Shown one piece after another: positions 13,243 through 63,986 of a stretch of DNA of 64,000 bases. The notes beneath the pieces were generated by a model. It did no database searches, had not been told where the DNA came from, and saw only the letters and a list, made by a program, of their open reading frames with translations. Origin of the DNA: Tubulanus polymorphus. Taxonomy: Eukaryota; Animalia; Nemertea. The stretch lies in assembly GCF_964204645.1 (NCBI RefSeq), contig NC_134031.1, positions 11,658,088 through 11,722,087 of the forward strand, in the 5' to 3' direction. A program made the translations under genes and the position numbers. The stretch's first letter is position 1. Every line of letters starts with the position of its first letter.

Positions 13243-13321
13243 TTTAATACTAAATTTTTTATTAAAATTGATTTTAGAAGTTATTCATTTATATTTTATT
13301 CATATATATGAATATTTTAAG

Positions 13322-13716
13322 AGTAATAGGGAATATCTTGTTTCAGGTTAAAGGTTGAATGGTCGAGTTCATTAATAACAAATATTAAAAGTAATTTAAA
13401 ACTATAATATATTTTCATAACCGTGTGTATTTCAGTTGAATATTATTATTATTTGAATATATTTGATTATATGAATTTGTGTGTTGTAAATAAATCAATT
13501 GGTCGCGGAGCGGAGCGGTAGCGAAGTGGAGCGACCAATTGATTTAATACAATATGCTTTTTAAATTATTGATATCTTAGAATAAATATTTAGTTTTAAT
13601 ATAAAATGCACACGGTTATGAAAATATATTATAGTTTTGAATTACTTTTAATGTTTTGTTTTTTAATGAGCTCGACCGTTCGACCTTTGATCTGAAACAA
13701 GATATTCCCTATTACT
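13322..13716. repeat. Palindromic terminal hairpin of P1
   Basis: AGTAATAGGGAATATCTTGTTTCAG...CTGAAACAAGATATTCCCTATTACT, with inner stem AATCAATTGGTCGC/GCGACCAATTGATT. Confidence 0.9.
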
Positions 13717-14624
13717 CTAGTAACTCTTTAGGTTAATACTAAATAGACTAGCTAGTTGAAGTTATGTAATTTTTATTCAAATCTTATCAAAATATAAAGT
13801 ATTCTCTTTTAAAAAGAAATATTAGATTTTGAAAAAAATTAAAATAGAAATAATGGCTAGTTAAAGATATGCAATTTTTAATTCTTAGGATTTAAAATAT
13901 CAGATAAGTCATTTTGGATTCTCGATAATAAATCCTCAAACTGAAAATCAATTCAACGAAACGCCTGGTGGAATAACTATTTCATAAACACATATATCTT
14001 ATTCTACAGTCAGTATCGATTTCAACATTCCAAACCCGGGCTTTTGTGCGGAATGCACAGCTGTCACTATAACCATTAACAACGACCGAATGACGCAATT
14101 GAAATTCCAGCAAACGTAATGCATTGAAAGTCTATACAGTATGGCTAAACTGCTACTGTCTCATGAGTTGAAATATCCGTAATTTCTGATTTCACATCCT
14201 TCCATATTCACTTTCATGACTCAAATAGCAATGGTCTTCTTGTTACGCGTAGCATTTTGTTATCTAAAAGATAAATATCTAGCGTAGAATAAAACTAACT
14301 TGAAGTTGTAGTTGTCAAATATAGATTAATACACTTAAACATGTTTAACGTTTCCCGGCGTCTTAATAACAACAAAAACAGTACTTACATTTAGAACTGT
14401 AAACTCCTAATTGTGTTTCTAGAGAGAAATCCTATGCGTTCCTATGCTTATGCACTGCGCGCTTATAACTGCCAGTTATTCACCAGCCAAACATTGTCTG
14501 TCTGAGCAACAGGTGTTCTTTTATGATGAAATTAATTAATTCTTTTCAACAGAGCACGTTCGATCAATATTCAAATGAAGTACTACTCCCCATTCAACTG
14601 AATTTATAACATGCGACACAGATG

Positions 14625-15416: not shown

Positions 15417-18062
15417 TTAACATGTAATAATCCTGTTCATTATTTCCTTTTCTTTCTCTTCTTCTCTTTTAAATTTTAAGTATTCTTCTAAATTGCAACC
15501 ATACGCGACTGTATGAATTCCATCATCTTTTCTATTTCTTCAATAAACATCTCGTGGTACTCAGATCTTAAACATTTCATCTTGTGTTTTCTAACTTCTT
15601 CATTGAATATACAATTGAACTACACTTTTGGTTATTCCTTTTAACTTTTTAGCTTCATGAGTTTTGGTTTAATATGAATACATTTTAGATCTAATGCCTA
15701 TAAATTCAATCATTTCCTCACCACCTAATTCATCATTAAACTTCCCTGGCACCTTTTTATTATCATTGCTAAACAATTTATGATCTTTTGGGTAATTACT
15801 AAAGTTGAAATGATGTTTTAATGTTTTTAAATCATCTGTTATGTTATTACTTTTAATCTTTAATATGTAACTGTCAGTATCAAAATATAAGATTTCTATA
15901 TGCTTCTCTCCAAAATGAGGTTTATAATAGAATTCATACATCAATAATTTTGATATTTCTAAAACTGAAGCACCAACATAAATTGGTTTATTGAATTTCA
16001 TAGAAGTTCTTCTCATTTTAACAGCGGCTAAATTTTTATCAAATATTCTGTTAACAATAAATTTAGGATATGTTTGTAGATGTCTAATTCTTTTACCATT
16101 GCTCACCAACTCAAAATCATTTCTATTTCTAATATTTTCAATTTTTTATTTATTCATTAACTTGAAGTAATCTTTTTCGAAATCAGTTTTAGCTTTAGTT
16201 CTCTGTTTGGTGTCAAAATCTATATATTTTTCTAACCATTTAGATTTTTGACTGAATGAAATATACCTATGTACTTTTTTTAGAATCAATCCTTGATTCA
16301 AATAAAACTTCAACATTCTATAATGTACTACATAATTATATTTATCTTCCTGAGTTACCATTAACTTTTCTGTACGAATATCATTTTCGGGTTTAATTCT
16401 TTTTTGATAATTTAATAATTCTTCATGTGTTACAGTTTTATGTTCGGGGCAGTAAACTAGATTCCTTGATTTGAATTTTTTATCTTCAGGATATTCCAAG
16501 TCTACAACAAAGAAGTAACCAGTATCTGAATCATCTGCAATATCTAGAATTCTTTTCTTCCAATCAAATTTATCATTATTTTCATGTTGTAAAACTTCAT
16601 TTATTTCAAATACTCCATAAGGCTGAGGCTCCATCATTGCCCAACCATATAGATTATTTGCATCTATATATAATAACTTATATCCAGGATGATCATTTAC
16701 ATTGAAATATCTATCGCCTAATACACTCGAAACTCCTTCTCTTATAGATTTTTCAAATAATAATAATTGATTTATATTTGTGAACAAATCCAATTTTATA
16801 TCTGTGAATTTTAAACCACAATCCCAAGTTAAACCTGGACTAGAATAACAATGACATGGATCAATATTGAAATATTTTAGATTTACATCTCTAAACCTTT
16901 CAAATATATCCGATAATAATAATACATCTGATTTTAGATATAAATCTACTAATTGTCCATGATTTTTTATTCCTAAATTGATTCCAAATATTCAATGTTT
17001 TATTATGGACTTCATCTTTAACATATTCATTTTTTAATTCATCATAGAATTGTTCTATTAATAATTCAGTTATATTAAAATCATTATGATTTTTATAAAA
17101 TGAATATGGAATTGCTCCTTTATAACTCATTAATTGAAAATCATCATTATTTGGATAGTGTTGCTTTAATATTTCTAATTCATCATCAACTAATGATTTT
17201 TATAAATTATCTAATGAACTGCTTAAAAATTATATAATAATATAATTCTCAGATGTTTTAGCTAACACTTTAAATTTATAAGTTGGTATTTTAGCAACAT
17301 CTTTTGATCTATTTGAATTTAATCTTTCAATTTCATTATTGATTTCTTCTATTTTATGACATAACTGTTTGAAAAATAAATGGGCATCATACACTGATAA
17401 ATTATGAAATACAACTGGAACAAAATTGATTTTCTTAGCTTGTAAGTTACAATTCTCATGCGCCGCACCTCTAAACTTTCCATTCAAATGATCATGGTCA
17501 CTAACTTTTTTATCTTTTAGATTAAATGTCTTTTCACAATAAAAACATTTATCTGCAAACTCAAATTCTTCTTTATCTTCTTCTGTCATAATCATTTCTT
17601 TTCTTTCATTTAACTTTTCATTAAATTTTATTTCATACTCAATTAATAAGTCACAAAAATGATTGATCACATTTTCATTTCTGCAATTATGATATTCACT
17701 TTTAATTAGTTCTGGATAATCAGTTTTTATATAATCAAAAAGCTTCAGCTGATTGATGAATCTTTTTAATATTAAAGGATCTGAATAATCAATTACATCA
17801 TTTTCATTAGAATTTAATTTCTTTCTTTTATAATATATTTCTTTTCTATCTTGGTCAGTTAATTCTTTATTTAATGATTCAAAATCTCCTTATATTACAA
17901 ATGGTACTTTATTTTTGTAATCATATTTTTTGAATTCTAATATTTCATCCTTTTCATTTGGTAAAACTATTTTACAATAATCATGATTATCTCACAATCG
18001 TTTATGATTTAATAATGCACTTTCAGTTCTGAATTTAGTTATACATTTTCTACATAGATATA
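15417..18062 (-). pseudogene. pPolB of P3, 3' part, intein-free
   Basis: YIDANNLYG, YFDTDSY and SDHDH...AHENCN; several frameshifts. Confidence 0.9.
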
Positions 18063-20318: not shown

Positions 20319-20784
20319 AGTAATAGGGGTAATAGGCTTTCAAATCAAAGGTCGAACGGTCGAGTTCATTAAAAAACAAATTATTAAAAGTAATTTAAAA
20401 CTATAATATATTTTTATAACCGTGTGCATTTCATATTATAACTAAATATTTATTCTAAGATATTAATAATTTTAATTTTAAAAGCATATTGTATTAAATC
20501 AACTGGTCGCTCCGCTTCGCTACCGCTCCGCTCCGCGACCAATTGATTTATTTACAATACACAAATTCATATAATCAAATATATTTTAATAATTATAATT
20601 ATTCTATTATTCAACTGAAATGCACACGGTTATGAAAATATATTATAGTTTTAAATTGCTATTACCCCTATTACTCTTAAAATAATCATATACATGAATA
20701 ACATTTAAATTGACAGATTATTCAATATAAAAGTGTAAGCTCTTATAGAATAGATATATAGATATATTTACAACATTATTTCAA
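20319..20784 (+). repeat. Left TIR of P2 (contains palindrome 20319-20675)
   Basis: Reverse complement of 41405-41925 apart from a ~55-bp deletion. Confidence 0.92.
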
Positions 20785-23987: not shown

Positions 23988-24589
23988 AGATTTATTTATA
24001 TTTGAACCGCATAATATGTTAGTTACTGGAGTAACCAATTGTGGTAAAACACATTTCATATTAGATTTGTTAGAAACTATTTATAAGAATCATTTTGATA
24101 ATATAATATTATTCTGCCCTACTTATGAAATGAATAAAACATATAATAGAGATATAGTTAAGATAAAAAAGTTTAATATATTAAATCCTAAAACAGTAAA
24201 AGAAAATTTAGATAATTGTATAAAAATAGCAATTGATACTTATAGGATCAAATACATTATTCATTGTAGATGATTGCGCAAATTTACATGATTCAAAAGT
24301 GAGAGAAAGTGAGATATGTTATCTAGCTTTCTCTGGGAGACATTTCGGGATAACAACATGGGTTTTAAATCAAAAATATAATTCAATTGTTAAGGACTTT
24401 AGGGAGAATATAAGATTTCTAGTTTTATTTTATAACAAAGATAGAAAATCTATGCAACAATCATTGGAAGAAAATCAAATTATACCTACTGAATTACATG
24501 ATGAATATATGAATAAATTAAAGAATAATAAAGGTTCAGAATTATTACTGAGACTACAATTTCCCTATGAATATAAATTTATAAAATAA
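23980..24589 (+). pseudogene. A32/FtsK-like genome-packaging ATPase, frameshifted
   Basis: Walker A GVTNCGKT, Walker B LFIVDD, GRHFGI motif. Confidence 0.9.
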
Positions 24590-24592
24590 AAT

Positions 24593-25033
24593 TTATAATT
24601 TGGAATATTATAGAAACTAATTTATATATCTATGTACTAGACGTACGAGTAAGAAAGTAAGATTCTTGCCAAGAAAGTAAGAAAGTAAGAATCTTGGTAA
24701 GAATTCTTACGTACGTCTAGTATATAGAGATATAAATTAGTTTTATAATAATTATTCTAAATTTAAATTATAAAAATGAATAAATTATATGTTTTCTCTT
24801 AATCAAAATAAAAATAGATTATATTATAACTATTTCTATACTTAGATTAATAATTTTATGTTTTTAATTTTTATGAAAACTAAATTATATATCTATGTAC
24901 TAGACGTACGAGTAAGAAAGTAAGATTCTTGCCAAGAAAGTAAGATTTCTTGGATTCTTGGATTCTTACCAAGATTCTTACGTACGTCTAGTATATAGTT
25001 ATATAAATTAGTTTTATGATAATTATTCTAATT
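24593..25033. repeat. Two tandem palindromes at the junction of convergent gene blocks
   Basis: Arms AAACTAA(T/A)TTATATATCTATGTACTAGACGTACG and its complement, around AAGAAAGT-type loops, at 24593-24775 and 24871-25033. Confidence 0.9.
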
Positions 25034-25419
25034 TTGTTTCTAATATATTTATAAAATCATCTCTGTTTATATCTAATTCATCAAAAGTCTTAGTCTTAAG
25101 GTAGATTTATTAATTTTAATTGAGCCATCTTAACATAATAATTAGTAGGTATATTAGCTTTTTCTCTTAATTTTTCTAAGTATTCATCAAAATCATCATA
25201 ATCAAAATCAAAATGATATCCAAAATTATCAGATAACTTAAATCTATTTTTCTAAAATATAATAATTTATATATTTGTTTAGGATTATCTTCTGCATAAG
25301 CTAATAATTTATCAAATAACAACTTATAGAATATATATTATTGGTTAGTTTTAGGATTAAAATATCTGATATATTTATTAAGGTTATTTAACAATGGTAT
25401 CATACTCACCATTTTATAA

Positions 25420-32412: not shown

Positions 32413-35400
32413 TTATAATACATATTTTTATTAAAATTTGATTAACACGTTAGAATTCATTTCATAATCTCATTCTCTTTTGTTTCTCTTTTAAATTTTA
32501 AGTAGTCATCTAAATTGCTACCATAAGCAACTGTATGAATTTCATCATCTAAAATATATCTTTTATCATCAAATGGGTTTAGACTTATCTTTTCAATTTC
32601 TTCAATAAACATTTCATGATCTTCAGATCTTAAACATTTCATCTTATGTTTTCTAACTTCTTCATTGAATAAACAATTGATGTAATCTTTGAAATGAATA
32701 TTCTTTTCTACTACACTTTTGGTTATTCCTTTTAACTTTTTAGCTTCATGTTCTTTAGTTTTATATGAATACATTTTAGATCTAATACCAATGAATTCAA
32801 TCATTTCTTCACCACCTAATTCATCTTTGAATTTACCGGGAACTTTTTTATTATCATTGCTAAACAATCCATGATCTTTAGGATAGTTACTAAAATCAAA
32901 ATGATGTTTTAATGTTTTTAAATCATCAGTTATGTTATCAGTTTTTATCTTTAATATGTAACTGTCAGTATCAAAATATAAGATTTCTATATGTTTTTCT
33001 CCAAAAATTGGTTGTAATACATTATAATAGAATTCATACATTAGTAATTTTGATAATTCTAAAACTGAAGCGCCAACATAGATTGGTTTATTAAATTTCA
33101 TTGATGTTCTTCTCATTTTAACTGCGGCTAAATTTTCATCAAATATTCTGTTACCCATGAACTTAGGATATGTTTGTAAATGTCTAATTCTTTTACCATT
33201 ACTGACTAACTCAATATCATTTCTATTTCTAATATTTTAACAAGTCTTACCATAGAATGCATTATTCATTAACTTGAAGAAATCTTTTTCGAAATCAGTT
33301 TTAGCTTCAGTTCTCTGTTTGGTGTTAAAATCTATATATTTTTCTAACCATTTAGATTGACTAAATGAAATATATCTATGTACTTTTTTTAGAACCATTC
33401 CTTGTTTTAGATAAAACTTTAACATTCTATAATGTACTACATAATTATATTTATCTTCTTGAGTTACCATTAACTTTTCTGTATTAATATGATTTTCGGG
33501 TTTAATTCTTTTTTGATAATTTGATAATTCTTCATGAGTTACAGTTTTATGTTCGGGACAGTATGCTAGATTTCTAGATTTAAATTTAATATGTTCCGGA
33601 TATTCCAAGTCTACAACAAAGAAGTAACCAGTATTTGAATCATCTGAAACATCTAGAATTCTTTTCTTCCAATCAAATTTATCATTATTTTCATGTTGTA
33701 AAACTTCACTTATTTCAAATACTCCATAAGGTTGTGGTTCCATCATTGCCCAACCATATAGATTATTTGCATCTATATATAATAACTTATATCCAGGGTT
33801 ATCATTTACATTGAAATATCTATCACCTAATACACCTGAAACTCATCCTCTTATAGACTTTTCAAACAATAGTAATTGATCTATATTTGTTAACGAATCC
33901 ATTTTTATATCTGTAAATTTTAATCCACAATCCCATGTTAAACCTGGTGATGAATAACAATGACAAGGATCAATGTTAAAATATTTTAGGTTTACATCTC
34001 TAAACCTTTCGAATATATCGGTTAATAATAATACATCTGATTTTAGATATAAATCTACTAATTGCCCATGATTTTTCATTCTAAAATGATTCCAAATATT
34101 CAATGTTCTATTATAGACTTCATCTTTAACGTATTCATTTTTTAATTCATCATAGAATTGTTCTTTCAATAATTCAGTTATGTTAAAATCATTATGATTT
34201 TTATAGAAAGAATATGGAATTGCGCCTTTATATCTCATTAATTTAAAATCATCATTATTTTGGTAGTGTTGCTTTAATATTTTTAATTCATCATCAACTA
34301 ATGATTTTGATAAGTTATCTAATGAACTATTTAAAAATCTATATGAATCTATAAATCTTAGGCAACCAAATTGGAATGATATATAATTCTCAGATGTTTT
34401 AGCTAACATTTTAGATTTATAAGTTGGTATTTTATCTTTTGATCTATTTGAATTTAATCTTTCTATTTCATTATTAATTTCTTCTATTTTATGACATAAC
34501 TGTTTAATGAATAAATGTGCATCATATCCTGCTAGATTATGAAATATAACTGGTACAAAGTTAATTTTCTTAGCTTGTAAGTTACAATTCTCATGTGCAG
34601 CGCCTCTAAACTTTCCATTCAAATGATCATGGTCTCTTACTTTTTTATCTTTATAATTAAATAGTTTTTCACAATAATAACATTTATCTGCAAATACTAA
34701 CGCTTCTTTATCTTCTGTCATAATTATTTCTTTATTTTCATTTAACTTTTCATTAAATTTTATTTTTTGGTGGTTCATCTGAAAAATCATTTTCATTAGA
34801 ATTTAATTTCTTTCTTTTATAATATATTTCTTTTCTATCTTGATCAGTTAATTCTTTATTTAATGATTCAAAATCTCCATATATTACAAATGGTACTTTA
34901 TTTTTGTAATCATATTTTTTGAATTCTAATATTTTATCCTTTTCATTTGGTAAAACTAATTTACAATAATCATGATTTTCACATAATTGTTTATGATTTA
35001 ATAATGTACTTTCATTACTGAATTTATGTAAACATTTTCTACATAGATATATTTTATTATGGTGATCACTTTCTGTTCTAAAGAATAAATCTATTTGTTT
35101 AATCCACACATAATTATTCTCATAATATAATATATCTATAACATCATCTGAATCATAATCTTTTGATAGATATAAAGGTTCTAATGTATAATGTTTTATA
35201 TTGTTACCTTTTGTATTTGGTAATTTGATTAAATCAAATACATTTATCTTTATATTATTATCTCTTTCTATTTTTGGGATGTTTTTAATTATAACAGGAT
35301 ACTTATCCATCTTATAATTGTTTTCAAATGGTTTATAATGAGTTAATCTACAAATATTATAAGTTGCAGGATGTAAACAACTTATTATAGCCCATAGAAA

Positions 35401-35967
35401 ACATTTATCATCTTCATTTTGTACATTTATTACAGCATTAGTTTTAAAGTTTGGTAGTTTAATATAACTCGATGCTTCAATATCTGGTTCTTTATAATAT
35501 GATACATTATTTTCATCGATTGGTTTTGATTTCGTTAACTTATTATATTTTGTATTATAAACATGTAAAGTCATAAATATTATTTCATCAAATATTAAAC
35601 CAGATCCTTCAAAATATTTCTCTTCTATTTTAGTTTTTACTTCATTATAACATTTATTTAATTTATCATCTATATGCTGTTTAGACATAATATTTTGTGG
35701 ATTTATCATCTATATGTTGTTTATATATAATATGTTGTGAATGAGAATTTATATTAATGAATGAATGAATATATTTTTCTCAAATGTATAATACATAGTA
35801 TAATAGTATAATAATTGTTGTACATGATTATTGAATATATACATTCAAGCAGGACAGCCCCAAGCCCTAAGGGCTGTACCTAATTGGGGGGATGCCCTGG
35901 TATGATTTGATACCATGATACAATTAATGAGAATACAATAATAATTAATGACAACATAATTGACATC

Positions 35968-35995
35968 AAAAATAATAATAATAATAATAATAATG

Positions 35996-36031
<36 letters not shown>

Positions 36032-36187
36032 GTAATGGTAATGGTAATGGTAATGGTAATGGTAATGGTTATGGTAATGGTAATGGTAATGGTAATGGTT
36101 ATGGTAATGGTAATGGTAATGGTTATGGTAATGGTTATGGTAATGGTAATGGTAATGATAATAATAATAGTAATAATAATAATGATG

Positions 36188-36219
<32 letters not shown>

Positions 36220-36225
36220 GATAAT

Positions 36226-36268
<43 letters not shown>

Positions 36269-36345
36269 TATATCCATATACATACATATACACATGCATA
36301 CACACATATACACATATATACATACACATATACACATACATATGC
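35968..36345. repeat. Compound microsatellite (AAT)n/(ATGGTA)n/(CATA)n in the LINE 3' UTR
   Basis: Directly visible. Confidence 0.95.
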
Positions 36346-37464
36346 ATAAGATATATAAATATTTTCGAAAATAAATGAAGGTCGGCAACACAAAAAAGGT
36401 TTAATTTTAGAATGAATTAATAGTTCAAGAGTGTGGTTTTTTTGAATCGTGAGATAAAAGAATTTATGGTAGCAGCTTTGCGAAGATGATCATCAGTGTT
36501 CTGCCAAAGAATTGGAGTTCTACTTAAAAAAGAATCATGAAAGAGTTTCGTGGTATGAAATTGGACTCTGGCATTATTCCTGTTTCTAGTGTTATAATTG
36601 TGGAATTTTGAATTTAAATCTAGTAAATTGTAGATAGACAAAGGGAGCTTTTTATGAGAATGATTATATCCAAATTTAAGAATTTCTAATTTGACAAGAT
36701 CGGCAAATTTTAAAATTTTGTATTTTTTGAAAATAGGGGATGTTGGTGCATTGAAGGCAGCATTATCTATGAGTCGTACAGCTTGAGATCAGCATCAATA
36801 TTTAATCCTAGAAATTTACAGTCAGTAGATAATTCTATATTTAAATTTTCTAATTCTATTTTTAAGTTGTCTGACCTCAATAGATGCCTTTTTGGTTTGA
36901 ATAGTAAGTATTTAGTTTTTTCAATGTTCAGGGTAAGTTGATTGGCATGGAACCAGGAGGTTAATAATTTTAAATCATTTTTAGCATTTTGAAACAGTTC
37001 AGAAAGATTCTTTTCAGTACATAGACGGTTTGTATCATCGGCAAATGAGATGGCTTTAGAATGTTTGAGATTATTATTTAGATCGTTAACGTAAACAAGA
37101 AAGAGAAGCGGACCTAAGACTGAGCCTTGTGGTACTCCATGCATAAGCGTGTTGAAAGTCGAGTCAGCATTATTGTAGTGAACATAAATTTTTCTATCTT
37201 TGAGATAACTATGAAACCAGTTGAATGCGTGTCCCCTAATTCCATAGTGATATAATTTATAGAGTAGTTTGTCAATATTTAACAATAATAATAATAATAA
37301 TAATAATATATATATATATATCCATATACATTCATATACACATGCATACACACATATACACATATATACATACACATATACACATACATATGCATAAGAT
37401 ATATAAATATTTTCGAAAATAAATGAAGGTAGGCAACACAAAAAAGGTTTAATTTTAGAATGAA

Positions 37465-40400
37465 TTAATAGTTCAAGAGTGTAGTTTTTTTGAATCGTGA
37501 GATAAAAGAATTTATGGTAGCAGCTTTGCGAAGATGATCATCAGTGTTCTGCCAAAGAATTGGAGTTCTACTTAAAAAAGAATCATGAAAGAGTTTCGTG
37601 GTATGAAATTGGACTCTGGCATTATTCCTGTTTCTAGTGTTATAATTGTGGAATTTTGAATTTAAATCTAGTAAATTGTAGATAGACAAAGGGAGCTTTT
37701 TATGAGAATGATTATATCCAAATTTAAGAATTTCTAATTTGACAAGATCGGCAAATTTTAAAATTTTGTATTTTTTGAAAATAGGGGATGTTGGTGCATT
37801 GAAGGCAGCATTATCTATGAGTCGTACAGCTTTTTTTCTGGATTTTGAAAATAATATTAGTTTGCTCAGAGGAAAGCAGTGGACCCCAGACAACCAGTGC
37901 ATAAATAAGATGACAGTGAATATATGAATTGTAAATAGTTTTTTTCAAAAAACCTGGGAACATATTCTTTACAGTCCTTAGCAGGTACAAATTTTTATTC
38001 ATTTTATCGATAAGCTGTTTAATATGCAAATTCCAATTGAGATCAGCATCAATATTTAATCCTAGAAATTTACAGTCAGTAGATAATTCTATATTTAAAT
38101 TTTCTAATTCTATTTTTAAGTTGTCTGATCTCAATAGATGCCTTTTTGGTTTGAATAGTAAGTATTTAGTTTTTTCAATGTTCAGGGTAAGTTGATTGGC
38201 ATGGAACCAGGAGGTTAATAATTTTAAATCATTTTTAGCATTTTGAAACAGTTCAGAAAGATTCTTTTCAGTACATAGAAGGTTTGTATCATCGGCAAAT
38301 GAGATGGCTTTAGAATGTTTGAGATTATTATTTAGATCGTTAACGTAAACAAGAAAGAGAAGCGGACCTAAGACTGAGCCTTGTGGTACTCCATGCGTAA
38401 GCGTGTTGAAAGTCGAGTCAGCATTATTGTAGTGAACATAAATTTTTCTATCTTTGAGATAACTATGAAACCAGTTGAATGCGTGTCCCCTAATTCCATA
38501 GTGATATAATTTATAGAGTAGTTTGTCAATATTTAACGAGTCAAATGCTTTTGATAGGTCAAGACATATACCCAAAGAAAAATTTCTTTTTTCTAAATTA
38601 GCGATAATGTTACCAATAAAATCAGCTATGGCATGAGTTGTAGAATGGTTTGGTCTGAAGCCATATTGCGTAGTATTTAGAATTTCAAATTTAAACAAGA
38701 AATTATATAGTCGCTTATGAACAAGTTTTTCCAAGATCTTGGATAAGACTGGTAGTAGGGAAATTGGACGGTAATTGTTTAGAGTCTGTTTGCTTCCAGT
38801 TTTATGAAGAGGAATAACCTTTGCTATTTTCATTTTATCTGGGAATTTGCCTTCTTGAAGAGATTTATTACAAAGAATAGTCATAGGATTAATAATTGAG
38901 GGAGCAATAAATTTCAATAGTTTATTGCTTAAAATATCTGGACCCGTACTTTGTTTAGGCGAAAGCTGGTTGATCATTTTTTTATTATTTCCTCACTATT
39001 TGTAGGTTGCAGGAACATAACACTGTCATTTTTATTAGGAAGAAATGCTATGAAATTAGTGGTAGTGTTAGGTATTTTTTCTGAATACTTTCTGCCAACC
39101 GAAGAAAAGAAATCATTAAATGCAAGACTAATTTCGGAATTATCAGTAACTGTTCTTCCATCAATCTTAAAATTTGTCGTAATTGATGTTTTATCATTAG
39201 TCTTGCCAATTAGTTCTTTAATAAATTGCCACATTTTACGACAGTTTTTTCCAAAGGAATTAATTTTGTAATTATGAACGTTGGTCTGATTTATCTAACC
39301 CAATAACTTTTTTGTATAGATTATCACATTTCTTTGAGGATCTCAGAATAGAGTTAGTCATCCACGGCTCAATTAATTTGTTTTTCTTTTTTCTTTTTTT
39401 AATTTCTGGAGCTATACTATTAATAGTATTAGTAATATTTGTCATAATAAAGTCATACGATTCACTACAATTCATATTATCCAAATTTGACCAGTTAACA
39501 TTTAAAAGGGTGTTATTTATTGATTGTATATTTTTAGCATTAAGGTTACGGGAGAAGAATTCATTTGTTGTTGGTCTAACATTATATACAATAGAAACGA
39601 AACAAGGCAAGTGATCCGAAATATCAGTTAGTAGTATTGCACCAGTGTGATTACTATTTAGTTCGGGAGAGAGGTATATGTTATCAATTAGAGTAGCAGT
39701 GGACTTTGTGATTCTTGTAGGTCGCAGTATTGTAGGGCATAGACTATTGTTTAGGTTGATTTCTAAGAATTTTGATGTATTCTTATGACTATTGATCTTA
39801 ATGTAGTCTAAATTCTGATCCATACCAAGAACTATCTCTGATTTTTCGTTATTAATTTTTGTAATTAAAGTTCTGTATATTTCAAGAAACATTAGTTCGC
39901 TATTGCCAGGTACTCTATATAATTCACCAATAATAATTTTCTTTTTAGATTGAGTTTTAGGATAAATTTCTATGAAACAAGATTCAAATTTACCTTCTTC
40001 AAAAATGTCCAAATCAGTTCTCGGGTTGTACGATATATTATCATTAACGTAGATGGCGACTCCTCCTTGAGATAAATTCAGTCTATGATTTTCAATTAAA
40101 TGATAGTTAGATAATTTACAAAGAGGTCCATTTTTATCTGTTAGAAAGGTTTCACATATCATTATGACATCTATAATAATATTTTGATTTTTAAAGATTT
40201 CTATCATAATTTTGAGTTTATCAATTTTTGAATAGAGATTACGTACATTCAGTTGTAAGATATTAAGGTTGTTGGTAGTATTGAAATTATATACATCTTT
40301 CAGGTCACTGGGTTTAATATATGGACATTGATTACTATCTAGAATAAGATCATCATCAATGATTGAATTTAAATAATAATTTTTATCATTAGCTTTTTGT

Positions 40401-40513
40401 TTGAATAATTTAAAAAAATAATTTAGAACAAATACGTAAAACCAAAAAGAAGAAAATTTGATAAGGAAAAAAAAGAAAAAAAAAGAGTTTGTAATAAACA
40501 AAAAAATGCACAA
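37465..40513 (-). pseudogene. LINE ORF2 (APE endonuclease-reverse transcriptase), disrupted by stops and frameshifts
   Basis: LQLNVRNL, ICETFL, ATLIDNIY, SDHLP; NYRPISLL, QYGFR, DLSKAFD, GVPQGSVLGP, FADDT. Confidence 0.93.
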
Positions 40514-41404
40514 AAAGATGCTGACCTTTGACCGCCGTATACGGCAATAGTCAGCTAGTACTTGGTAGGTAGTTGATTAAATCAACTATGAGGCCAAGGC
40601 ATATGTGTCAAGGTTACAAAAGAATCTTATATTTTAGTCAAACAGATTTAGAGATAATATTATTATATATTGATTTATCTTCAGATTTTATAAACTTTAC
40701 TTTAACTGATATACTAATTTTAGGATATTCAACATCAGTTATTATTTTTATTATTTCTTTCATATTTTCTAAATGTTTTTTATTTTCTTCTTGTGTTTTT
40801 CCTTTATGAAATTTAAACTCGATAGCTGCTGGGCCAATATCACTTTTAAATGCTTCGGTTATCTCTATATCTTTTTTATTATCCAATAAATTAATATATT
40901 TTCTTACATCTTCCATGTATGGTCTTTTATTGTTTAATTTATTTTTTATGCTTTTAATTGTCTTCTGTTTCTTATCATTATCTTTATCAAAATAATCTTC
41001 ACCTAAAATATCATTATTCATATTTCTAATATTTCTATATTCTTTTAGATTTTAAATGTTCATTATAATATCTTTTATCACTGAATGATTGATTACATGT
41101 ATCACATTTATATATTTCTTTTTCATTCTTTAATTCATCTAATTTAGTTTCTAATATATCATCTTCATATTCTAATTTCAATTTATTCTCTAAATGTGTT
41201 TTAGTTTTATTGTGTCTTGCTTTTTGGGATTTATCTATATTGATTTTACATGTTGAACAGTAGTACTTATTTGCTTCCATTTTAATACTAAATTTTTTAT
41301 TAAAATTGATTTTAGAAGTTCAATGATTTATATCATGTATTATTTCAATCACACTTTACTAACACTTTTAATGTTTAAAAATCTAACTCATACAAATATG
41401 AATA

Positions 41405-41925
41405 TTGAAATAATGTTGTAAATATATCTATATATCTATTCTATAAGAGCTTACACTTTTATATTGAATAATCTGTCAATTTAAATGTTATTCATGTATA
41501 TGATTATTTTAAGAGTAATAGGGGTAATAGGCTTTCAGGTTAATGGTTGAATGGTCGAGTTCATTAAAAAACAAATTATTAAAAGTAATTTAAAACTATA
41601 ATATATTTTCATAACCGTGTGCATTTCAGTTGAATAATAGAATAATTATTATAATTGAAATATATTTGATTATATGAATTTGTGTATTGTAAATAAATCA
41701 ATTGGTCGCGGAGTGGAGCGGTAGCGAAGCGGAGCGACCAATTGATTTAATACAATATGCTTTTAAAATTAAAATTATTAATATCTTAGAATAAATATTT
41801 AGTTATAATATGAAATGCACACGGTTATGAAAATATATTATTGTTTTAAATTACTTTTAATAATTTGTTTTTTAATGAACTCGACCGTTCGACCTTCGAT
41901 TTGAAAGCCTATTACCCCTATTACT
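41405..41925 (-). repeat. Right TIR of P2 (contains palindrome 41514-41925)
   Basis: Inverted match to 20319-20784. Confidence 0.92.
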
Positions 41926-49440: not shown

Positions 49441-49500
49441 TTTAATATCAAATTTTCTATTAAAATTGATTTTAGAAGTTATTCATTTTTATATTTTAAG

Positions 49501-49621
49501 AGTAATAGGGAATATGTTGTTTCGTATCAAAGGTTGAAAGGTCGAAAAATAAATTCGAGTGTGCGAGAATTATTTTTCGACCTTTCGACCTTTGGAATGA
49601 AACAACATATTCCCTATTACT
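49501..49621. repeat. 121-bp terminal hairpin of P3
   Basis: AGTAATAGGGAATATGTTGTTTC...GAAACAACATATTCCCTATTACT. Confidence 0.88.
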
Positions 49622-50459
49622 TGTATGAGACTTGGCAATGATAAGTTGCAAGAAATCACCAAACATAAGAAAAAAAATATTAAGAATTAATAAGCGCACA
49701 GCGAGCACCAAAGGTGCGAGCTGGAAGCTCCTTAAGTTAATCGCGCATGTGAGGCAAATTCAAATTTTCTATATTCCTCCATACCGTCCTTCTCAAAAAG
49801 TGTAGTTTACATCCGGGACACATGGGCATTGGCTAAATCGCGGCAACGAAAATTACGGTCACGGACGAACTTTCGTCGAAACTTGCAGGCCGCGTCACGT
49901 TTAAATACGTGTATGAAGGATAACAAAATGATTTTGTGTAATTTTCAGAATATTTACAAAGAATATTCATAAAATATTGTCAAAAATGTTATTTTCAGTT
50001 CGTATTTCTCCGTAGAAACCGATTGGAAGACTGGATTCGAATCCCACAAAAAGCACAGTCCCTTAGTAACGGGTCGAATTTTTTAGAATCACAAGCGCGC
50101 CGGTTTCATAGCATCACTAAGGGTCGAGTCCCGGGGAATAACGCGTGCGCGCGCAGTCCGCGTGTTACAAAATGACCGACCCGCCCCGCCCCACACAAGT
50201 ACCAAATAATTAACTCAAAACTTTGCCAATCCCTGGGAGTAAAATGCGTCGTTTTTTAACATATCTTATCTTTATGTGTCGTTTACTCACGTTTTTCAAA
50301 CGTTATTCCCCTTTTCCGTTTCGAGTAAAATTCGTATACGCTATAATCTGTATTTAAATACCGATTTTACTATTAATATTTAGTGTAATAAAACTATATA
50401 AAACTATTGAAGCCATCAGATTTAATGTAGAAATCTGACGTTTTTTAACTACAAAAAAA

Positions 50460-51000
50460 TTTATTCTCGTGTAATCGATAAAACAATAGGCTCTCAATAT
50501 GTGATCAACATTCCCAACCCACGTTGTTTTTCGCAGAAAATGATTTTTTTTAAATTTTATCATGGGTCCCTTAAGTAATTATAATTCGCTCGAAGGTCTA
50601 TCATATTTTCGGTGATTTTCTTTGGTCACGCCACCGGGTGCCTTCCTTCAGCAAAACCTACATTTTTTGCAATGTAGAACTTGCGGGAACAAATTTCTTT
50701 AGTAAAACATACAGTTAAAGCCAACACAACAGTTAAAGCCGTTCGTAGAACATATCTGACGATACAGAAAGATTTATTGTCGTATGAAAGATAAAACAAA
50801 CAAGGCTTTCAATTTGTAATCAACAATCCCAAAGCATGTTTTTTTCGCTAAAAATGAATTCCTCTTCATGTATATTTGATCACGGCGCATCTTCGCTCGA
50901 AAATAAATCTTCGACATTTTGGGTGATTTTCTTTGGCCACGGACCACACCGAACACAGGTGCCCCTGCAAAACCTATGTTTTTTTTACAATGTAGAATTC
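50460..51000. repeat. Diverged ~310-bp tandem duplication in the flank
   Basis: GATAAAACAA...CAACA(T/A)TCCCAA...TTTTTCGC...GGTGATTTTCTTTGG...CAAAACCTA...CAATGTAGAA occurs twice. Confidence 0.6.
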
Positions 51001-51149
51001 TATATAAGTTACCGAAAGGGCACTCGCCTATTTATTCATTAAAACTTAAGACTGGCTGTGCACTTCACCAAGTTTCGACTTTGGCATATTGTTACTGTAA
51101 TTAAGAATTAGTAATTAGGAAATGGCGTTTTCATTCGAGAGGTCGAGAC

Positions 51150-51189
51150 ACCACTCATCACCACAAGTAATTTCTTTTCCTTATAAATG
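51150..51189 (+). repeat. 40-bp inverted repeat, left copy
   Basis: ACCACTCATCACCACAAGTAATTTCTTTTCCTTATAAATG; 37/40 match to the reverse complement of 57511-57550. Confidence 0.9.
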
Positions 51190-54100
51190 GGAGAGAATAA
51201 GACAGAACAAATTGATGTTAATGAAAATCAATATTATTGTCCATATTGTAAAAAATACATTGATAAATCTCAAAAATCGCGTCATGAAAAATCTTCAAAT
51301 CTAAAATATAATATAAAAAATGTTATAGATTTTGAAACTTCAGATAATTCCAATGAAAGAAAAGAACGATTAGAAAATATGAATTTGGATGAAATAAAAT
51401 GTGAAGTTTGTAATGAATTTATAGTAAAAAGGAATTATAATAGACATCTCGAATCACAAAAACACCATCAAAATTTGAGTAATACTGTTTTAGGAAAAGA
51501 TTATTTCGATGATAAACCTCAAAAAGTAAAAAAACCAACTCCAAAAACTAAATCCTTTAGAAACATTACGTAGTAAAATTGGTCCTGCAGCTATTATATT
51601 TAGATTTTTTAAAGGTACAACAATAGAAGATTACAGTAAATTTAATGAAATGATAGAAAAATACTAGATTTGGTAACAGATGTTGAATATCCAAAAATTA
51701 GTATCTCTGGGAAAGTAAGTTTTTTAAAGTCAGAAGAGAAAATGGATTATAATATTCAAACACTCTCTGAAGAAATAATTTCAAAAACGCAAATAAAAGA
51801 GAAGTTAGAAAAAATATTTAATGAATTTAAACGTCATATTGAAGAAAGATATTTTGAGGGTTCTGGTTTATCATTAAATGAAGTTATATTTTTAGATTTA
51901 AATGTTTATAATACAAAAAGGAATAAAACATCAAAAAGTAAAACAATGTTTAAAAATGATTCAAACTTTACAACAGAAAAGGATATTAAAGCATCATCTT
52001 ATATTAAATTACCATTTACAACAAAAGCAGTAATAAATGTTCAAAATGAAGATAATAAATGTTTTCTATGGTCAATTATTAGTTGCTTACACCCAACAGA
52101 AGATATTACGCATAGTTTTAGAATAACAAATTACCGGAAATATGAAACATTATATAAAATTGATCAATATCCAGTAACTATAAAAATGATACCCAAAATA
52201 AAAAAAAATTAATAAGTTAAAAATAAACGTATTCGAATTAATGCAATTACCAAATACAAAAGGTGAAAATATTAAAGATTATACTTTGGAAGCTTTATAT
52301 TTAACAGAATATTATGATGATGAAAATGCTATAGATTTGTTATATTACAAAAAAGATGAAAATGAACATTATATGTGGTAAAAACAAATTGATTTATTCT
52401 TTAGAACAGAAAGTGATTTTAACAGTCATAAAATTTATCTATGTAGAAAATGTTTATCTAAATTCAGAACTGAGAATGCGTTACTAAAACATAAAGAATT
52501 ATGTGATAATAAAGATTTTTGCAAATTAATAATGCCAACAGAAAAAGATTATAAATTGAAATTTACTAATCATAAATTTAAAAATATTGTTCCATTTGTA
52601 ATTTATGGGGATTTTGAATCGTTGAATAAAGAATTAACTGATCAAGATAGTAAAGAAATATATAACAAAAAGCAATTATTAAAATCAATGGATAAAGGAA
52701 ATGAATTAAATGAAGACACAACACAAGACCCGCCAATTATAAATACAATTAAAAAAGTTCATCTAAGAGCTGCTGCTTACGGAATTTATATAAAATCAAA
52801 TTATCCTGAATTATATGAAAGTCGATATATTTCTTTTAGAGGTGAAAATGTAGTTAATGATTTTTGTGACAAAATGATTGAATTAGAAAGTGATTTTGCA
52901 AAATTATTAAACAAAAATAAAAGAATAGTTATGACAAAAGAAGATGAAATTGATTTAATTATGCAACTCATTGTTGTTATTGTGAAAAACGTTTTTATTC
53001 ATTTGATAAAAAAGTTAGAGATCATGATCATTTAAATTCAAAATATCGTGGAGCTGCTCATGAAGATTGCAATTTACAAGCTAAGAAAGTTAATTTCGTA
53101 CCAATATTATTTCATAATTTATCAGGCTATGATACCCATCTATTTATAAAACAATGATCAAAGAAATTGGGCACAATTAATCAAGAAATAGAAGAATATA
53201 ATGCTATGAATGGTGTAAATGTAAGAAAATATGATTTTAAACTATTAGCTAAAACATCTGAAAATTATATTTCATTTCAATTTGGTTGCATTAGATTTTT
53301 AGATTCTTATAGATTTCTAGTAAGTTCATTAGATAATTTATCAAAAAGTTTAGTTGATAATGATTTTGTTATAACTCGATATTATTATCCAAATGAACAA
53401 GATTTTAAATTATTGAGATATAAAGGTGCAATTCCTTATTCATTTTATAAAACACACAATGATTTTAATGTAACAGAATTATTAAAAGATCAATTTTATG
53501 ATCAATTAAAAGAGGAGTATGTGAAAGATGAAGTGTTTAATAGAACATTAAATATTTGGAACCATTTTAAGATGAAAAATCATGGTGAATTAGTTGATTT
53601 ATATTTAAAATCAGATGTTATGATATTGGCTGACATATTTGAAAAATTTAGAGAAGTTAATTTGAATCATTTTAATGTTGATCCTTGTTATTGCTACTCT
53701 AGTCCTGGTTTAACCTGGCAATGTGGTTTAAAATATACAAATGTAGAATTAGATTTATTAAAAGAACCAGACATGGTTTTATTATTTGAAAAATCAATTA
53801 GAGGTGGAATTAGTGGTGTTATGGGAGATAGGTATTTTAAAGCAAATGATGAATATAAATTATTATATATTGACGCCAATAATTTATATGGTTGGGCAAT
53901 GATGCAACCTCAACCATATAAAAATTTTATATTAACAGAAGTTGAAAATGATGATAAAACTGATTGGGAAAGCGCAATTGCGAGTTTGAAAGATGAAGCA
54001 CCAATTGGTTATTTCTTTGTAGTTGATTTAGAATATCCTGAAAATATAAAGTTTAAAACAAGAAACTTACCTCATTGCCCAGAACATTTAACTGTAGATG

Positions 54101-56187
54101 ATAGTTATTTAAGTGAATACCAGAAGAAAATAAAACCGAAAGATCATGTTTTTACAGAAAAATTAATACTTACTCAAAATAATAAATACAATTATATTGT
54201 TCATTATAGAATGTTAAAATTTTATCTAAAACAAGGAATGAAATTAAGGAAAGTACATAGATATATTGAATTTAATCAATCGAAGTGGTTAGAAAAATAT
54301 ATAGATTTCAATACTCAACAGAGAACCATATCAAAAACAGATTTTGAAAAAGATTTCTTCAAATTAATGAATAATAGTTTTTATGGTAAAACATGCGAAA
54401 ATATTAGAAATAGAAATGATATTGAATTAGTAAATAATTCTGAAAGATTAAGACATTCACAATCAAGTCCTAGACATTTAGGAAATAAAAGATTTGAAGA
54501 TTATTTAAAAGCAGTTAAATTAAAAAGAACGTCAATGAAATTTAATAAACCTATATTCATTGGTTCAACTGTTTTAGAAGTATCAAAATTATTAATGTAT
54601 GATTTTTATTATAATGTTTTACAACCACTTTTTGGGGAAAAGCATATTGAAATATTATATTTTGATTCTGTAACAGCTGACACCCCAATATTATTAAAAT
54701 GTAATGATAAAATATTGATAAGAAGAATTTCAGAAATAATTCCAAAACAAAATGAATGTTATATTTCATATGATGAAAAAGAATTAATACAAATAAATGA
54801 ATTAATAGATGTTTGGACAAGAAATGGATGGAAAAAAATTAAAGAATATTATTAGACATAAAACAAATAAGAAAATCTATAGAGTTAGAACTAAATTAGG
54901 GTTTGTAGATGTTACAGAAGACCATAGTTTAATTAAACGAAATGGCGATGAAATAAAACCAACTGATATAAAAATTGGATATGAATTATTACATAAAAGA
55001 TTTTTCCAAAGAATGAATCATATGTCATTCGATGAAATTATTGATAATATTTATAATATAGAACCCGAAACATTAGAAGAAAAAGAATATTTTATCAAAG
55101 GATCTTTCATGGGTGATGGTTCAGCAGGTGTGTATAATTATGTTTGGGGTAATAAATATTGTTAGTATTTATGCAATCAAGACTTGAAATTATTAGAAAG
55201 AATTAAGAAATTCTGTGAAGAAGTTTATTCACATAAAACATTTAGAATCATGGATGTTATGAAATCATCAGCAGTTTATATAATACTTGTAAATAATCCT
55301 AAAGATTTTGCTATAAAATATAATGATGAATTCTATATTCATGCAATAGTGAAAAGTAATACTTCAACTAAAGAAAAGATAGTTCCAGATTATGTATTAA
55401 ATGCAAAAAATAATTTAAGAAAATGGTTCTTCATTGGATTCTACGCAGCAGATGGTGCTAAAAAATTTACAAAAGATAAAAAGATAACCTTTGCACAGAA
55501 AGGAAAAGTTGCTATATCAGGGTTAAATATATTATGTAATTCATTAGGCTTCAATATGAATATTGGATTGATTAAATCTAAACCAAATTGCTTTAATTTA
55601 AGCCATACAGAAAAAGATTTAACTGAAGAAGTTAAAGATTTATTTGAAATATATAACCCAACAGATAATGTTTATGATTTATCAACTGAAGATGGCACAT
55701 TCAACTGTGGATTTCCATTAATTTGCTTCAATACGGATGCGTACATACTAAAAATCAAGACAAATGACATAACAAAAGACTTAAAAACATTAAAACATCA
55801 TTTTGATTTTAGCAATTATCCCAAAGATCATGAACTATTTAGCAATGATAATAAAAAGATTTCTGGTAAATTTAAAGATGAATTAGGGGGTGATGAAATG
55901 ATTGAATTTGTTGGGATAAGAAGTAAAATGTATAGGTACAGAATAAAAGATCATGAAATAAAAAGTTAAAAGGAATAACAAAACATGTGGTTGATAAACA
56001 TATAGAATTTCAAGATTATATAAAGTGTTTATATAACTCAATTGTAATGAAACATAAAATGAATTGTTTAAGATCAGAAAATCACGAGATGTACATTAAT
56101 GAAGTTGAAAAAACTAGTTTGAATCCATTTGATGATAAAAGGCATATTTTAGATGATGGTATAAAAACATTACCTTATGGCCATTAA
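51187..56187 (+). pseudogene. Divergent pPolB of P4 containing an intein
   Basis: C2H2 fingers, DNKCFLWSI, YGDFES, RDHDH, YIDANNLYG, KLMNNSFYGKT, YFD[intein]TDAY, NPFDDKR; several frameshifts and stops. Confidence 0.95.
54667..55732 (+). mobile_element. Intein with LAGLIDADG homing endonuclease at the PolB motif-C (pol-c) site, ~355 aa
   Basis: Block A SVTADTPI, block B VDVTEDHSL, block C FIKGSFMGDG, block D KIVPDYVLN, block E FFIGFYAADG, block F VYDLSTEDGTF, block G ICFN|T. One +1 frameshift near 54840 and one TAG at 55163-55165. Confidence 0.95.
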
Positions 56188-57513
56188 AACAGAAAATCAA
56201 TATCATCATACTCGAAATCACTATTGGCTTCTTCATTTTCATTTAATTGTTCTTGTATAATTTGTTTAGGTTCTTCCATTTCATTTTTCTCATTTAAATA
56301 AAGTTCTATCTTGTACCACATTTCATATCGCTCTCTTTGTTTCTTTTTGTTTGTTAATTCGTCAAATGGAATTATAATATCGATGTTTAAATAATTTACA
56401 ATCTTATTTAAAAAGAATTCATAATTAATTGAATCTGTTATTCTATTTTCCAAATGATACATTAATATTTGTTTGAATGTTTTTTTTTATATTTTCCATA
56501 TCTTCTTCTGTTAATTTAGGTTTTTCATAATAATCGTTAAATAATAAATATAAATACATTTTCTTTTGTTTTCTGTTAAATGTTGATGGAATAATTGTTT
56601 TTATAATATCTTTTTTAGTTATTTCACCATTTTTATTTTCTATTATTTTCATTTTTTCAAGCCATTGCATATATTCTGGTGTATGATCTTCTATAGAAAA
56701 TATTTTAAAAATTTCATCTAGATAAATTAATTTTGGTTCTATGAGAAAATCTCTAGTATTTTCTTCACCCCATAAATTCTTTTGCCATCCACAATCAACA
56801 CAAAATAACACAGTACCTTCTTGTCTTAAATCGCGTAATTACATTGTGGACATTTTCGTTTATAATTTATTGGTAATAGATCTTCATTAAGCTCTTGGTA
56901 TTTTCTTACGTTTTCTTTATGTTTTATTGTTCTATTATGTAGATTTGAATTACTTGTTGTAATAATCAATTTACAATATTTACAATAATATGTTTTTCTT
57001 GTTAATTCATTATATTGTTTTTCTAACTTTTCAACTGTTTCTTTATTATCTGGTAACGTTTTCTCATATTTTATTTTTTCTAATAAATTATTTTTTCTTT
57101 CATTGAATTCAGTTTCAAATTAATTAGAAATTTTATCTATATGTACTTTACGAAATTGATGATTCTCCCAATCTTCTATATTTTCAGGGCTATATTTTAT
57201 TCGACAAGGCTCACAGAAATGATCTTTTATATTATCCTTATCATAGAATAAGAAAGGTCTTTTCCAAATAATGTCAGGTTCAACTTCAACAGAATTACTA
57301 TTACTTTCATTACTATCAACATTAGCCGTTGCGCCATTAATTTTACACTTCTCTGAATGTTTTTTAACATAATTTCTTGAGAATAATTTATTACATTTTG
57401 GACAGTTTAGTTTAGGGGGTTTATAATTTTCATCATGTTTTTTCATATGTCGAGCCATATTACTTTTTTCTTAGAAGTTCACCACAAATTTCACATGCTA
57501 TCTTCTCATCCAT
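56184..57513 (-). pseudogene. Multi-zinc-finger ORF(s) specific to the P4 module
   Basis: TAAATG start at 57513 inside the right IR; CEIC...HMKKH, CPKC...HSEKC, CEPC...H...H, CKYC, CPQC and CVDC motifs; broken by stops and frameshifts. Confidence 0.6.
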
Positions 57514-57550
57514 TTATTAGGGAAAAAAATTACTTGTGGTGATGAGTGGT
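57511..57550 (-). repeat. 40-bp inverted repeat, right copy
   Basis: CATTTATTAGGGAAAAAAATTACTTGTGGTGATGAGTGGT. Confidence 0.9.
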
Positions 57551-62731: not shown

Positions 62732-63986
62732 ATGAGTGGGAGTTATATAAGTCCTTCTAAGATTTCTAGAATATCTAATGCTATTAAAGCAGAAAGATCA
62801 CATCATATAATTACTCATAATCCTTCAAATATTAATCCCGATGAAACTTTATATGTTAGAATTCCTCGATTAACACAAAATACTTTTTATGTTCCAAATA
62901 GTATTTATTTATCAGCCAATATAAAAGTTACGATAATGATGGTCATGATAATAATTATGTTGTTGATGATCTTAGGAGATATTTGATTAAAAAATTAACT
63001 ATAAAGATTGGTCCAGAAACAGTTTTCTCATTAGATGATTATAATTCATTTATGCATTATAAAGATTTATGGTTTACTAAAGAAAATAGAAATAATATGA
63101 TATTTCAGGGTATTCAATCGGAAAACCATAATAAATTAAGATCAGGAGCTAATGACGCAATAGTAACTCGTGCCACAGATAATTTGATTAAAAAGATTTA
63201 TGGGAGCAAATATAAAATTCCATTAGACTTTGAATTGATAAATAATAATGCACCTTTATATAAATACGCAATTCAAGAAGATATTATATTTGAGATAACA
63301 TTTGCTCTTGTAAATGAAATTGTATTATCTAGCGTTGTTAAAGATATGGGTTATAAATTATCGAATATATGTTTAGAATATGACACAGTAACTAATGAAA
63401 ATATTGCTAGCACAATTCAAAGTCAATACAATCAAGGATTTTCATTATTATATGATTATATTGATAAATTTAAAACTGTAACTATTAATGCAAATGGTGA
63501 AATAATTAATGAGAATATTAACTCCCCTAGAAGATCTATTAAAGGTATATTAATATTTTTTACAATTGCAACATATTCTAATGGCGCAATAAATGTTGAT
63601 AATTATCATAATCCTGAAATATCAAAAGTAGAAATAACTATTGAATGTATAGCAAATAAATTATTTTGTCAAGGAATGAGAATGATAGATCAGTGGCCAG
63701 AAATTAGAAAACATTTTATGAATAAAAAAAAAAATTATCTGAAAATTTTAATATTAATCAAATTGATTATTATACCGGTAATAAATACGCATAATGGTTA
63801 GATTTTAGAACAACTAAAGATAATTTATTACATGGTTCTGGTAAAAAACTACAGAACACTAAAGATGGAATACAATTATTCATGACAAAGAAAAAAGGAA
63901 GCTTAAATTTCAAAATGCACATTTATATTATATCTGACGCGCAATTAAATATTGTAAATTCTCAATTGAATAGTGTTATGCATTAG
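62732..63986 (+). pseudogene. Major capsid protein, full length but frameshifted
   Basis: THNPSNINPDETLYVRIP...YKIPLDFE...YKLSNICLEYD...RRSIKGIL...ISDAQLNI. Confidence 0.78.

Follow-up and report, generated by a model that had tools for sequence, protein, structure and literature searches.

The window analyzed here, a 64,000-nt stretch of the Tubulanus polymorphus assembly, carries several Polinton-type polymerase genes, of which the one designated P4 holds an unusual insert. The P4 PolB gene spans positions 51187 to 56187 on the forward strand and is divided into two exteins. The N-extein (51187-54666, +) encodes a Polinton protein-primed PolB, matches PF03175 with an E value of 1e-17, and contains several frameshifts and stops upstream of 53158, and the C-extein (55733-56187, +) starts with TDAY and has a further frameshift near 55,960. 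The major capsid gene of the same element follows at 62902-63798 (+); its match to Capsid_N is weak (E = 0.004), and it shares 81 to 91% DNA identity with the P3 capsid region. The protein-primed PolB and the double jelly-roll capsid gene are the Polinton hallmarks found in the P4 element, which extends beyond the window end, while the integrase, the ATPase, and both terminal repeats were found in the sister element P3. The latter is a complete Polinton with terminal repeats at 20319-20784 and 41405-41925, an integrase, an A32 ATPase, and a capsid gene, and its PolB gene is invaded by a LINE (35710-40640) that contains an internal duplication as well as a long microsatellite. The Polinton terminal repeats are imperfectly palindromic, and together with one internal palindrome they occupy 13287-13718, 20319-20784, 24572-25053, and 41405-41925.

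Upstream of the P4 PolB, there is a palindromic remnant of a Polinton terminal repeat (49499-49621). A 1.4-kb segment between this remnant and the polymerase (49676-51091) is absent in at least 209 reads, in which 15 other letters connect 49675 with 51092, and it looks like a separate insertion. The PolB module is flanked by a 48-bp inverted repeat (51150-51197 and 57503-57550), and in 49 reads, positions 51177 and 57548 are linked in opposite strand orientation; the repeat is possibly a shared promoter motif or marks an invertible segment.

Motif C of the P4 polymerase, YFD/TDAY, is interrupted by 1,066 nt (about 355 codons; 54667-55732, +), inserted between ...HIEILYFD and TDAYILK... with junctions at 54666/54667 and 55732/55733. 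Three paralogous PolBs in the window (P1 to P3; N-extein 65 to 71% identical) read YFDTDSY without interruption, and their empty motif C sites are located at 9730-9747 (P1), 15870-15887 (P2), and 32961-32978 (P3), all on the reverse strand. Sequence, paralogue comparison, Pfam, and homologues identified the insert as a LAGLIDADG intein at the pol-c site. Its features, all on the forward strand, are block A with the Ser1 nucleophile (SVTADTP, 54667-54687), the block B TxxH motif (TEDH, 54914-54925), two LAGLIDADG helices in which the catalytic Asp is present (GSFMGDG, 55100-55120; GFYAADG, 55436-55456), and a C-terminal part at 55670-55735 that consists of block F (VYDL, 55670-55681), block G ending in Phe-Asn (to 55732), and Thr+1 of the C-extein. 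All residues of class 1 splicing (Ser1, block-B TxxH, block-F Asp, terminal Asn, and Thr+1) are present in the insert and the C-extein. The YGD/TDS site was defined as the pol-c intein allele (Ogata 2005, PMC549080), and the P4 intein falls into this allele both by its insertion at YxD/TDS and by its closest kinship to other pol-c inteins. An earlier note, made from the letters alone, had described a motif C split by 1,066 nt, a full set of intein blocks with two LAGLIDADG helices, and hence a pol-c intein in a Polinton protein-primed PolB. The three empty paralogues bear out the first point and the sequence the second, and the site, the PF03175 match, and the kinship support the third.

Intact relatives carry the insertion in frame. 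In the P4 copy, the intein open reading frame is broken by one frameshift near 54,830-54,850 and by an in-frame TAG at 55163-55165; the same note had placed these lesions at about 54840 and at 55163, and the host PolB proved to be broken at several places outside the intein as well. Because the intein carries a frameshift and a TAG and the polymerase has further breaks, the P4 copy of both is dead. The penultimate residue of the intein is Phe, and the usual, although not obligatory, class 1 His is absent. The Phe had been pointed out as unusual; it is present, but it is not special, since His is a minority residue in this family. Among 103 family matches delimited by a regular expression, a count in which a few intein boundaries are mis-called, the penultimate residue is Lys in 40, His in 27, Ser in 11, and Phe in 5. 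Thus, we rejected the view of the Phe as a peculiarity or as proof of decay. Just past the splice site, at 55733-55744, three codons are rare in the N-extein (ACG, 1 of 20 Thr codons; GCG, 1 of 11 Ala codons; TAC, 3 of 37 Tyr codons), and the first 9 bases include 5 that are different in the empty paralogues P1 to P3. These codons may reflect a target-site preference or an immunity of P1 to P3, which is a post hoc reading; a codon signature derived from the donor was rejected, as the first codon is evenly spread in 145 loci.

When Pfam was applied to the window insert, Intein_splicing (E = 2e-5) and LAGLIDADG_3 (E = 3e-4) both scored under their curated cut-offs, which may be why the family has been missed. 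A 296-aa part of the window intein matched 179 proteins at E ≤ 0.001, the best at 9e-117, which speaks against a chance resemblance. A profile of 10 intact relatives, comprising six Polinton and four RNA-primed PolB inteins, retrieved PI-PkoII (1.7e-12), TliVMA inteins, mini-inteins, and I-DmoI from the PDB, and TIGR01445 was matched by all 10 of these relatives, the first with a score of 28.2 (cut-off 24.5). An AlphaFold2 model of the intein of P0001, the closest intact relative (63% identical to the window intein), had a pLDDT of 87. In a structure search, endonuclease-bearing inteins ranked first (7qsu, E = 2.5e-16, TM 0.64), and the top named matches in BFVD were DNA polymerases of a phycodnavirus, Pandoravirus, Marseillevirus, and Megavirus. 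The Hint domain expected at the outset was detected in the relatives, with TIGR01445 above its cut-off, and the P0001 model shows a Hint fold like that of the PI-PkoII and TliVMA inteins. The archaeal inteins PI-PkoII, TliVMA, and PI-PfuI are alike in their Hint and LAGLIDADG fold but show only 13 to 18% identity and reside in cellular genes.

Polinton-type (pPolB) exteins account for the top 9 of the 179 matches and for 13 among the 120 listed. Several of these Polinton relatives are unbroken ORFs of 1,500 to 1,700 aa, and many intein-bearing relatives come from contigs that measure tens to hundreds of kb. Apart from P0001, whose identity is given above, eight further Polinton inteins were compared and are 42 to 50% identical to the window intein, which does not exceed 45% identity to full-length inteins of RNA-primed, giant-virus-type PolBs. 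Both catalytic Asp residues and the full endonuclease length are kept in all seven Polinton rows shown, at 41 to 63% identity between lineages. Among the 145 parsed of 205 intein loci on viral, metagenome, and GTDB contigs, no protein-primed host was found, and there was no pPolB host among 144 new proteins obtained from 50%-cluster representatives (best 150 of 4,203 matches).

The intein is distributed patchily among Polintons. In a quick extein tree of 48 rows, 16 intein rows are scattered among 32 empty ones, which requires 10 changes of state, and the closest polymerase to P4, P0155 (86% identity), has an empty site. With the empty P1 polymerase as the query, which favored empty alleles, motif C was uninterrupted in 116 of its 119 other relatives. 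Outside P0005, the identities of inteins and their exteins form the pairs 63/60, 50/44, 74/68, and 86/83%. Because the two mostly track each other, the intein family, and its invasion of Polintons, can be regarded as old on the strength of these comparisons. Two further observations concern mobility. P0124, with the intein, and P0127, with an empty site, have polymerases that are 99.7% identical over 742 aa and differ by an exact junction, and in their cluster, 3 of the 4 junction-spanning members examined carry the intein. The P0005 intein is 41 to 49% identical to the others, although its polymerase is only 23 to 30% identical; a placement of this intein outside the remaining Polinton inteins was not rejected (p-AU 0.26). 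The plus and minus alleles of P0124/P0127 and the discordance of P0005 point to continued homing. Precise loss could explain the former but not easily the latter.

These data bear on whether the intein is an old passenger, gained once in ancient times and then subjected to vertical descent and repeated precise loss, with an endonuclease that no longer homes. The largely congruent intein and extein identities and topologies outside P0005, together with the 116 uninterrupted sites among P1 relatives (again from a query that favored empty alleles), would fit this scenario; the tracking of identities is compatible with homing, too. Against it, the catalytic Asp pair and the endonuclease length are retained in 7 of 7 Polinton rows shown, plus and minus alleles occur in nearly identical polymerases, and the P0005 intein is far closer to its relatives than its polymerase is. 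We consider such a passenger unlikely and prefer persistence by homing.

The origin of the family was addressed with a careful tree of 34 inteins, rooted on pol-a-site inteins, for which 22 of 56 rows, including P0087 and P0100, were dropped. In this tree, the seven Polinton inteins group together (100/100) and are nested among RNA-primed PolB pol-c inteins at a node with 97/96 support, and P0001 is the nearest relative of the window intein (99/97). The immediate sister of the Polinton clade is weakly supported (82/49). A topology that holds the RNA-primed inteins together with the Polinton inteins outside was rejected by the AU test (p-AU 0.0026). The best matches on viral contigs are giant-virus MAGs, and a GFPL-type C-terminal end is found in all full-length Polinton inteins and in inteins of uncultured giant viruses (GVMAG), whereas the Mimivirus APMV intein has an AGVGE-type end; no named cultured virus has the GFPL-type end in the supplements of PMC5784728. 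These results suggest that the ultimate origin likely lies among RNA-primed giant-virus-type PolB inteins.

It is very unlikely that the donor was an archaeal or phage RNA-primed PolB pol-c intein instead of one from a giant virus. P0087 and P0100, long-branch PolB inteins of another type, joined the Polinton clade in quick trees, and the pol-c allele was tied to archaea in the discussion of this site by Ogata 2005 (PMC549080). However, the branch of these two inteins is very long (1.84), they are devoid of the GFPL-type end common to the full-length Polinton and GVMAG inteins, and the best GTDB matches reach 38% identity, with archaeal matches being mostly partial.

That a Mimivirus-like giant virus recently passed its intein straight to this Polinton lineage is less probable still. 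The Mimivirus motifs listed in the earlier note are indeed present in the APMV intein (Q5UQR0; sequence printed in the supplement of PMC5784728), and these common motifs, along with identities of up to 45% to full-length giant-virus-type inteins, could be cited in favor of such a transfer. Yet the nearest relative of the window intein is a Polinton intein at 63% identity (99/97), the Polinton clade is fully supported (100/100), and the GC content of the intein equals that of the extein (25% versus 24 to 26%). Of the passage from giant-virus PolB to Polinton proposed in that note, the RNA-primed giant-virus-type ancestry is retained on the basis of the tree and the AU test, and the direct transfer into this element is not: the best matches are Polinton inteins of one clade, and their tree is largely congruent with that of the exteins, a result that speaks only against a recent direct giant-virus origin.

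The APMV intein is nevertheless a close counterpart. It has the same motif C site, Ser1/Asn/Thr+1, TxxH, two LAGLIDADG helices, a length of about 350 aa, many identical motifs, and a non-His penultimate residue, ending in Lys-Asn (supplement of PMC5784728). It differs in belonging to a separate clade and in its host, an RNA-primed PolB, whereas the window intein resides in a protein-primed Polinton PolB (PF03175) of an animal nuclear genome.

Several observations support this animal nuclear setting, as had been proposed. A DUF7869 gene at 440-958 (+) contains a 117-nt GT-AG intron (557-673), and its exons are identical to the Tubulanus polymorphus protein P0415 at 132 of 134 residues; the next-best matches, from bivalves and a hemichordate, show 27 to 43%. 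LINE and gypsy elements are interspersed among and within the Polintons of the window, and raw whole-genome shotgun (WGS) reads from another sample with the same species label cover 30 of 30 bins of 44.5-64 kb. On the basis of the spliced nemertean-matching gene, the host transposons, and the independent reads, the window is very likely ribbon worm nuclear DNA. That it is a chimera or a non-animal contaminant has a negligible probability, for although no contig among those listed spans the stretch, the spliced gene, the interleaved LINE and gypsy elements, and the reads over all 30 bins stand against such an artifact.

The WGS reads of the other sample also inform on copy number. Read depth is about 101 in the intein and 221 in the N-extein, compared with a minimum of 16 per bin. 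Of 121 reads at the position of the intein frameshift, 107 do not have it. The intein is multicopy in the host genome. If the genome size is 313 to 358 Mb, as tabulated for Tubulanus polymorphus in PMC8468679, the 1,934 Mb of sequence in the reads would correspond to some 16 to 19 intein copies per haploid genome. The intein depth, about half that of the N-extein, could stem from empty siblings or from more divergent inteins; no empty-allele joint appeared among the 15 listed of 72 read joints.

We consider it quite probable that P4 represents a decayed pol-c LAGLIDADG intein in an endogenous Polinton PolB, descended from one ancient giant-virus-type entry and likely persisting by homing, an activity predicted for its intact relatives. 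An intact copy would encode a polymerase precursor of about 1,700 aa, from which the intein would be excised by the class 1 route, with Ser1, the block-B TxxH, the block-F Asp, the terminal Asn, and Thr+1, so that the catalytic DTD is rejoined. Post-translational splicing would be essential to Polinton replication, the DTD being otherwise broken. Once free, the LAGLIDADG endonuclease would then cleave uninterrupted motif C sequences in other Polintons of that nucleus, which would acquire the intein when the break is repaired with the intein allele as template; since a host genome has many copies, targets would be at hand even with neither sex nor co-infection. The first move out of an RNA-primed into a protein-primed polymerase probably relied on only the short common YxD/TDS target in a co-infected cell. 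We also lean, by a small degree, toward the broader view that animal germlines host inteins predicted to be splicing competent and actively homing, that Polintons of several marine invertebrate lineages depend on splicing, and that these inteins spread among copies in one nucleus and across polymerase groups after the ancient hand-over from giant viruses.

Inteins have been stated to be absent from metazoan genomes (Green 2018, PMC5784728; PMC8529194). The family described here is a heritable, multicopy exception, with an endogenous virus rather than a host gene as its carrier. It takes the pol-c allele out of RNA-primed and into protein-primed polymerases, two types between which ordinary homing should not be able to move it, and would provide direct molecular evidence that Polintons and giant viruses met and recombined in common cells, which bears on the virophage-like behavior of animal Polintons. 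The long-standing question of whether animal cells do not tolerate inteins or have simply not been exposed to them becomes testable, and a multicopy element whose full and empty alleles share a nucleus offers a natural system for the homing cycle.

The nearest precedents come from the nuclei of algae and from iridoviruses of animals. Gallot-Lavallee 2023 (PMC10710043) reported viral-like DNA polymerases with inteins from Klebsormidium, Tetrabaena, and 'Honda fermentalgiana', all on nuclear scaffolds. In these cases, too, an intein was brought into a eukaryotic nucleus within an endogenous viral polymerase gene, but the hosts are algae and a labyrinthulomycete and no Polinton is named in the account of them (PMC10710043), whereas the intein of Tubulanus is carried by an integrating element that is present in many copies and has empty siblings as targets. 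The words 'animal' and 'metazoan' do not occur in the main text of that paper (PMC10710043). For Polinton pPolBs, HNH and VSR nuclease domains were described (Jeong 2023, PMC10748475), in a paper whose main text contains none of the terms 'intein', 'Hint', and 'LAGLIDADG', and it was speculated that nuclease insertions in pPolBs 'result from intein invasions' (Krupovic 2024, PMC11071308). Those insertions resemble the present one as nuclease insertions in a Polinton pPolB and differ in being described as nuclease domains, while here a full intein with a splicing domain breaks the catalytic motif. Inteins of invertebrate iridoviruses were reportedly treated by Bigot in 2013. They are likewise inteins of an animal DNA virus, but of a free virus and, in the case of Chilo iridescent virus, of the Gln type (PMC549080), in contrast to the window intein in an inherited nuclear element. 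A description of an intein in a Polinton/Maverick polymerase was not found by full-text searches of the openly available literature. What appears to be new is a homing-type pol-c intein family in protein-primed Polinton polymerases, heritable and multicopy in an animal genome.

Some minor observations were made on the wider family. Members occur at a D/TDG or D/CDG site in other hosts (P0010, P0097, P0099, P0282, P0392, and P0401), and the hosts of P0010, P0097, and P0099 are annotated as topoisomerase II/gyrase B. A pair of related inteins is present in many RNA-primed PolBs. Among the 119 related Polinton PolBs, motif C has DCD in place of DTD in 40 and DTDA in 16; Cys+1 is also compatible with splicing. 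Finally, two Polinton-type PolBs bear bacterial labels, P0006, which carries one of the Polinton inteins (Thiodiazotropha ex Ctena orbiculata, a clam-symbiont MAG), and P0165 (Sulfurimonas), which probably reflect animal-host contamination of the MAGs.
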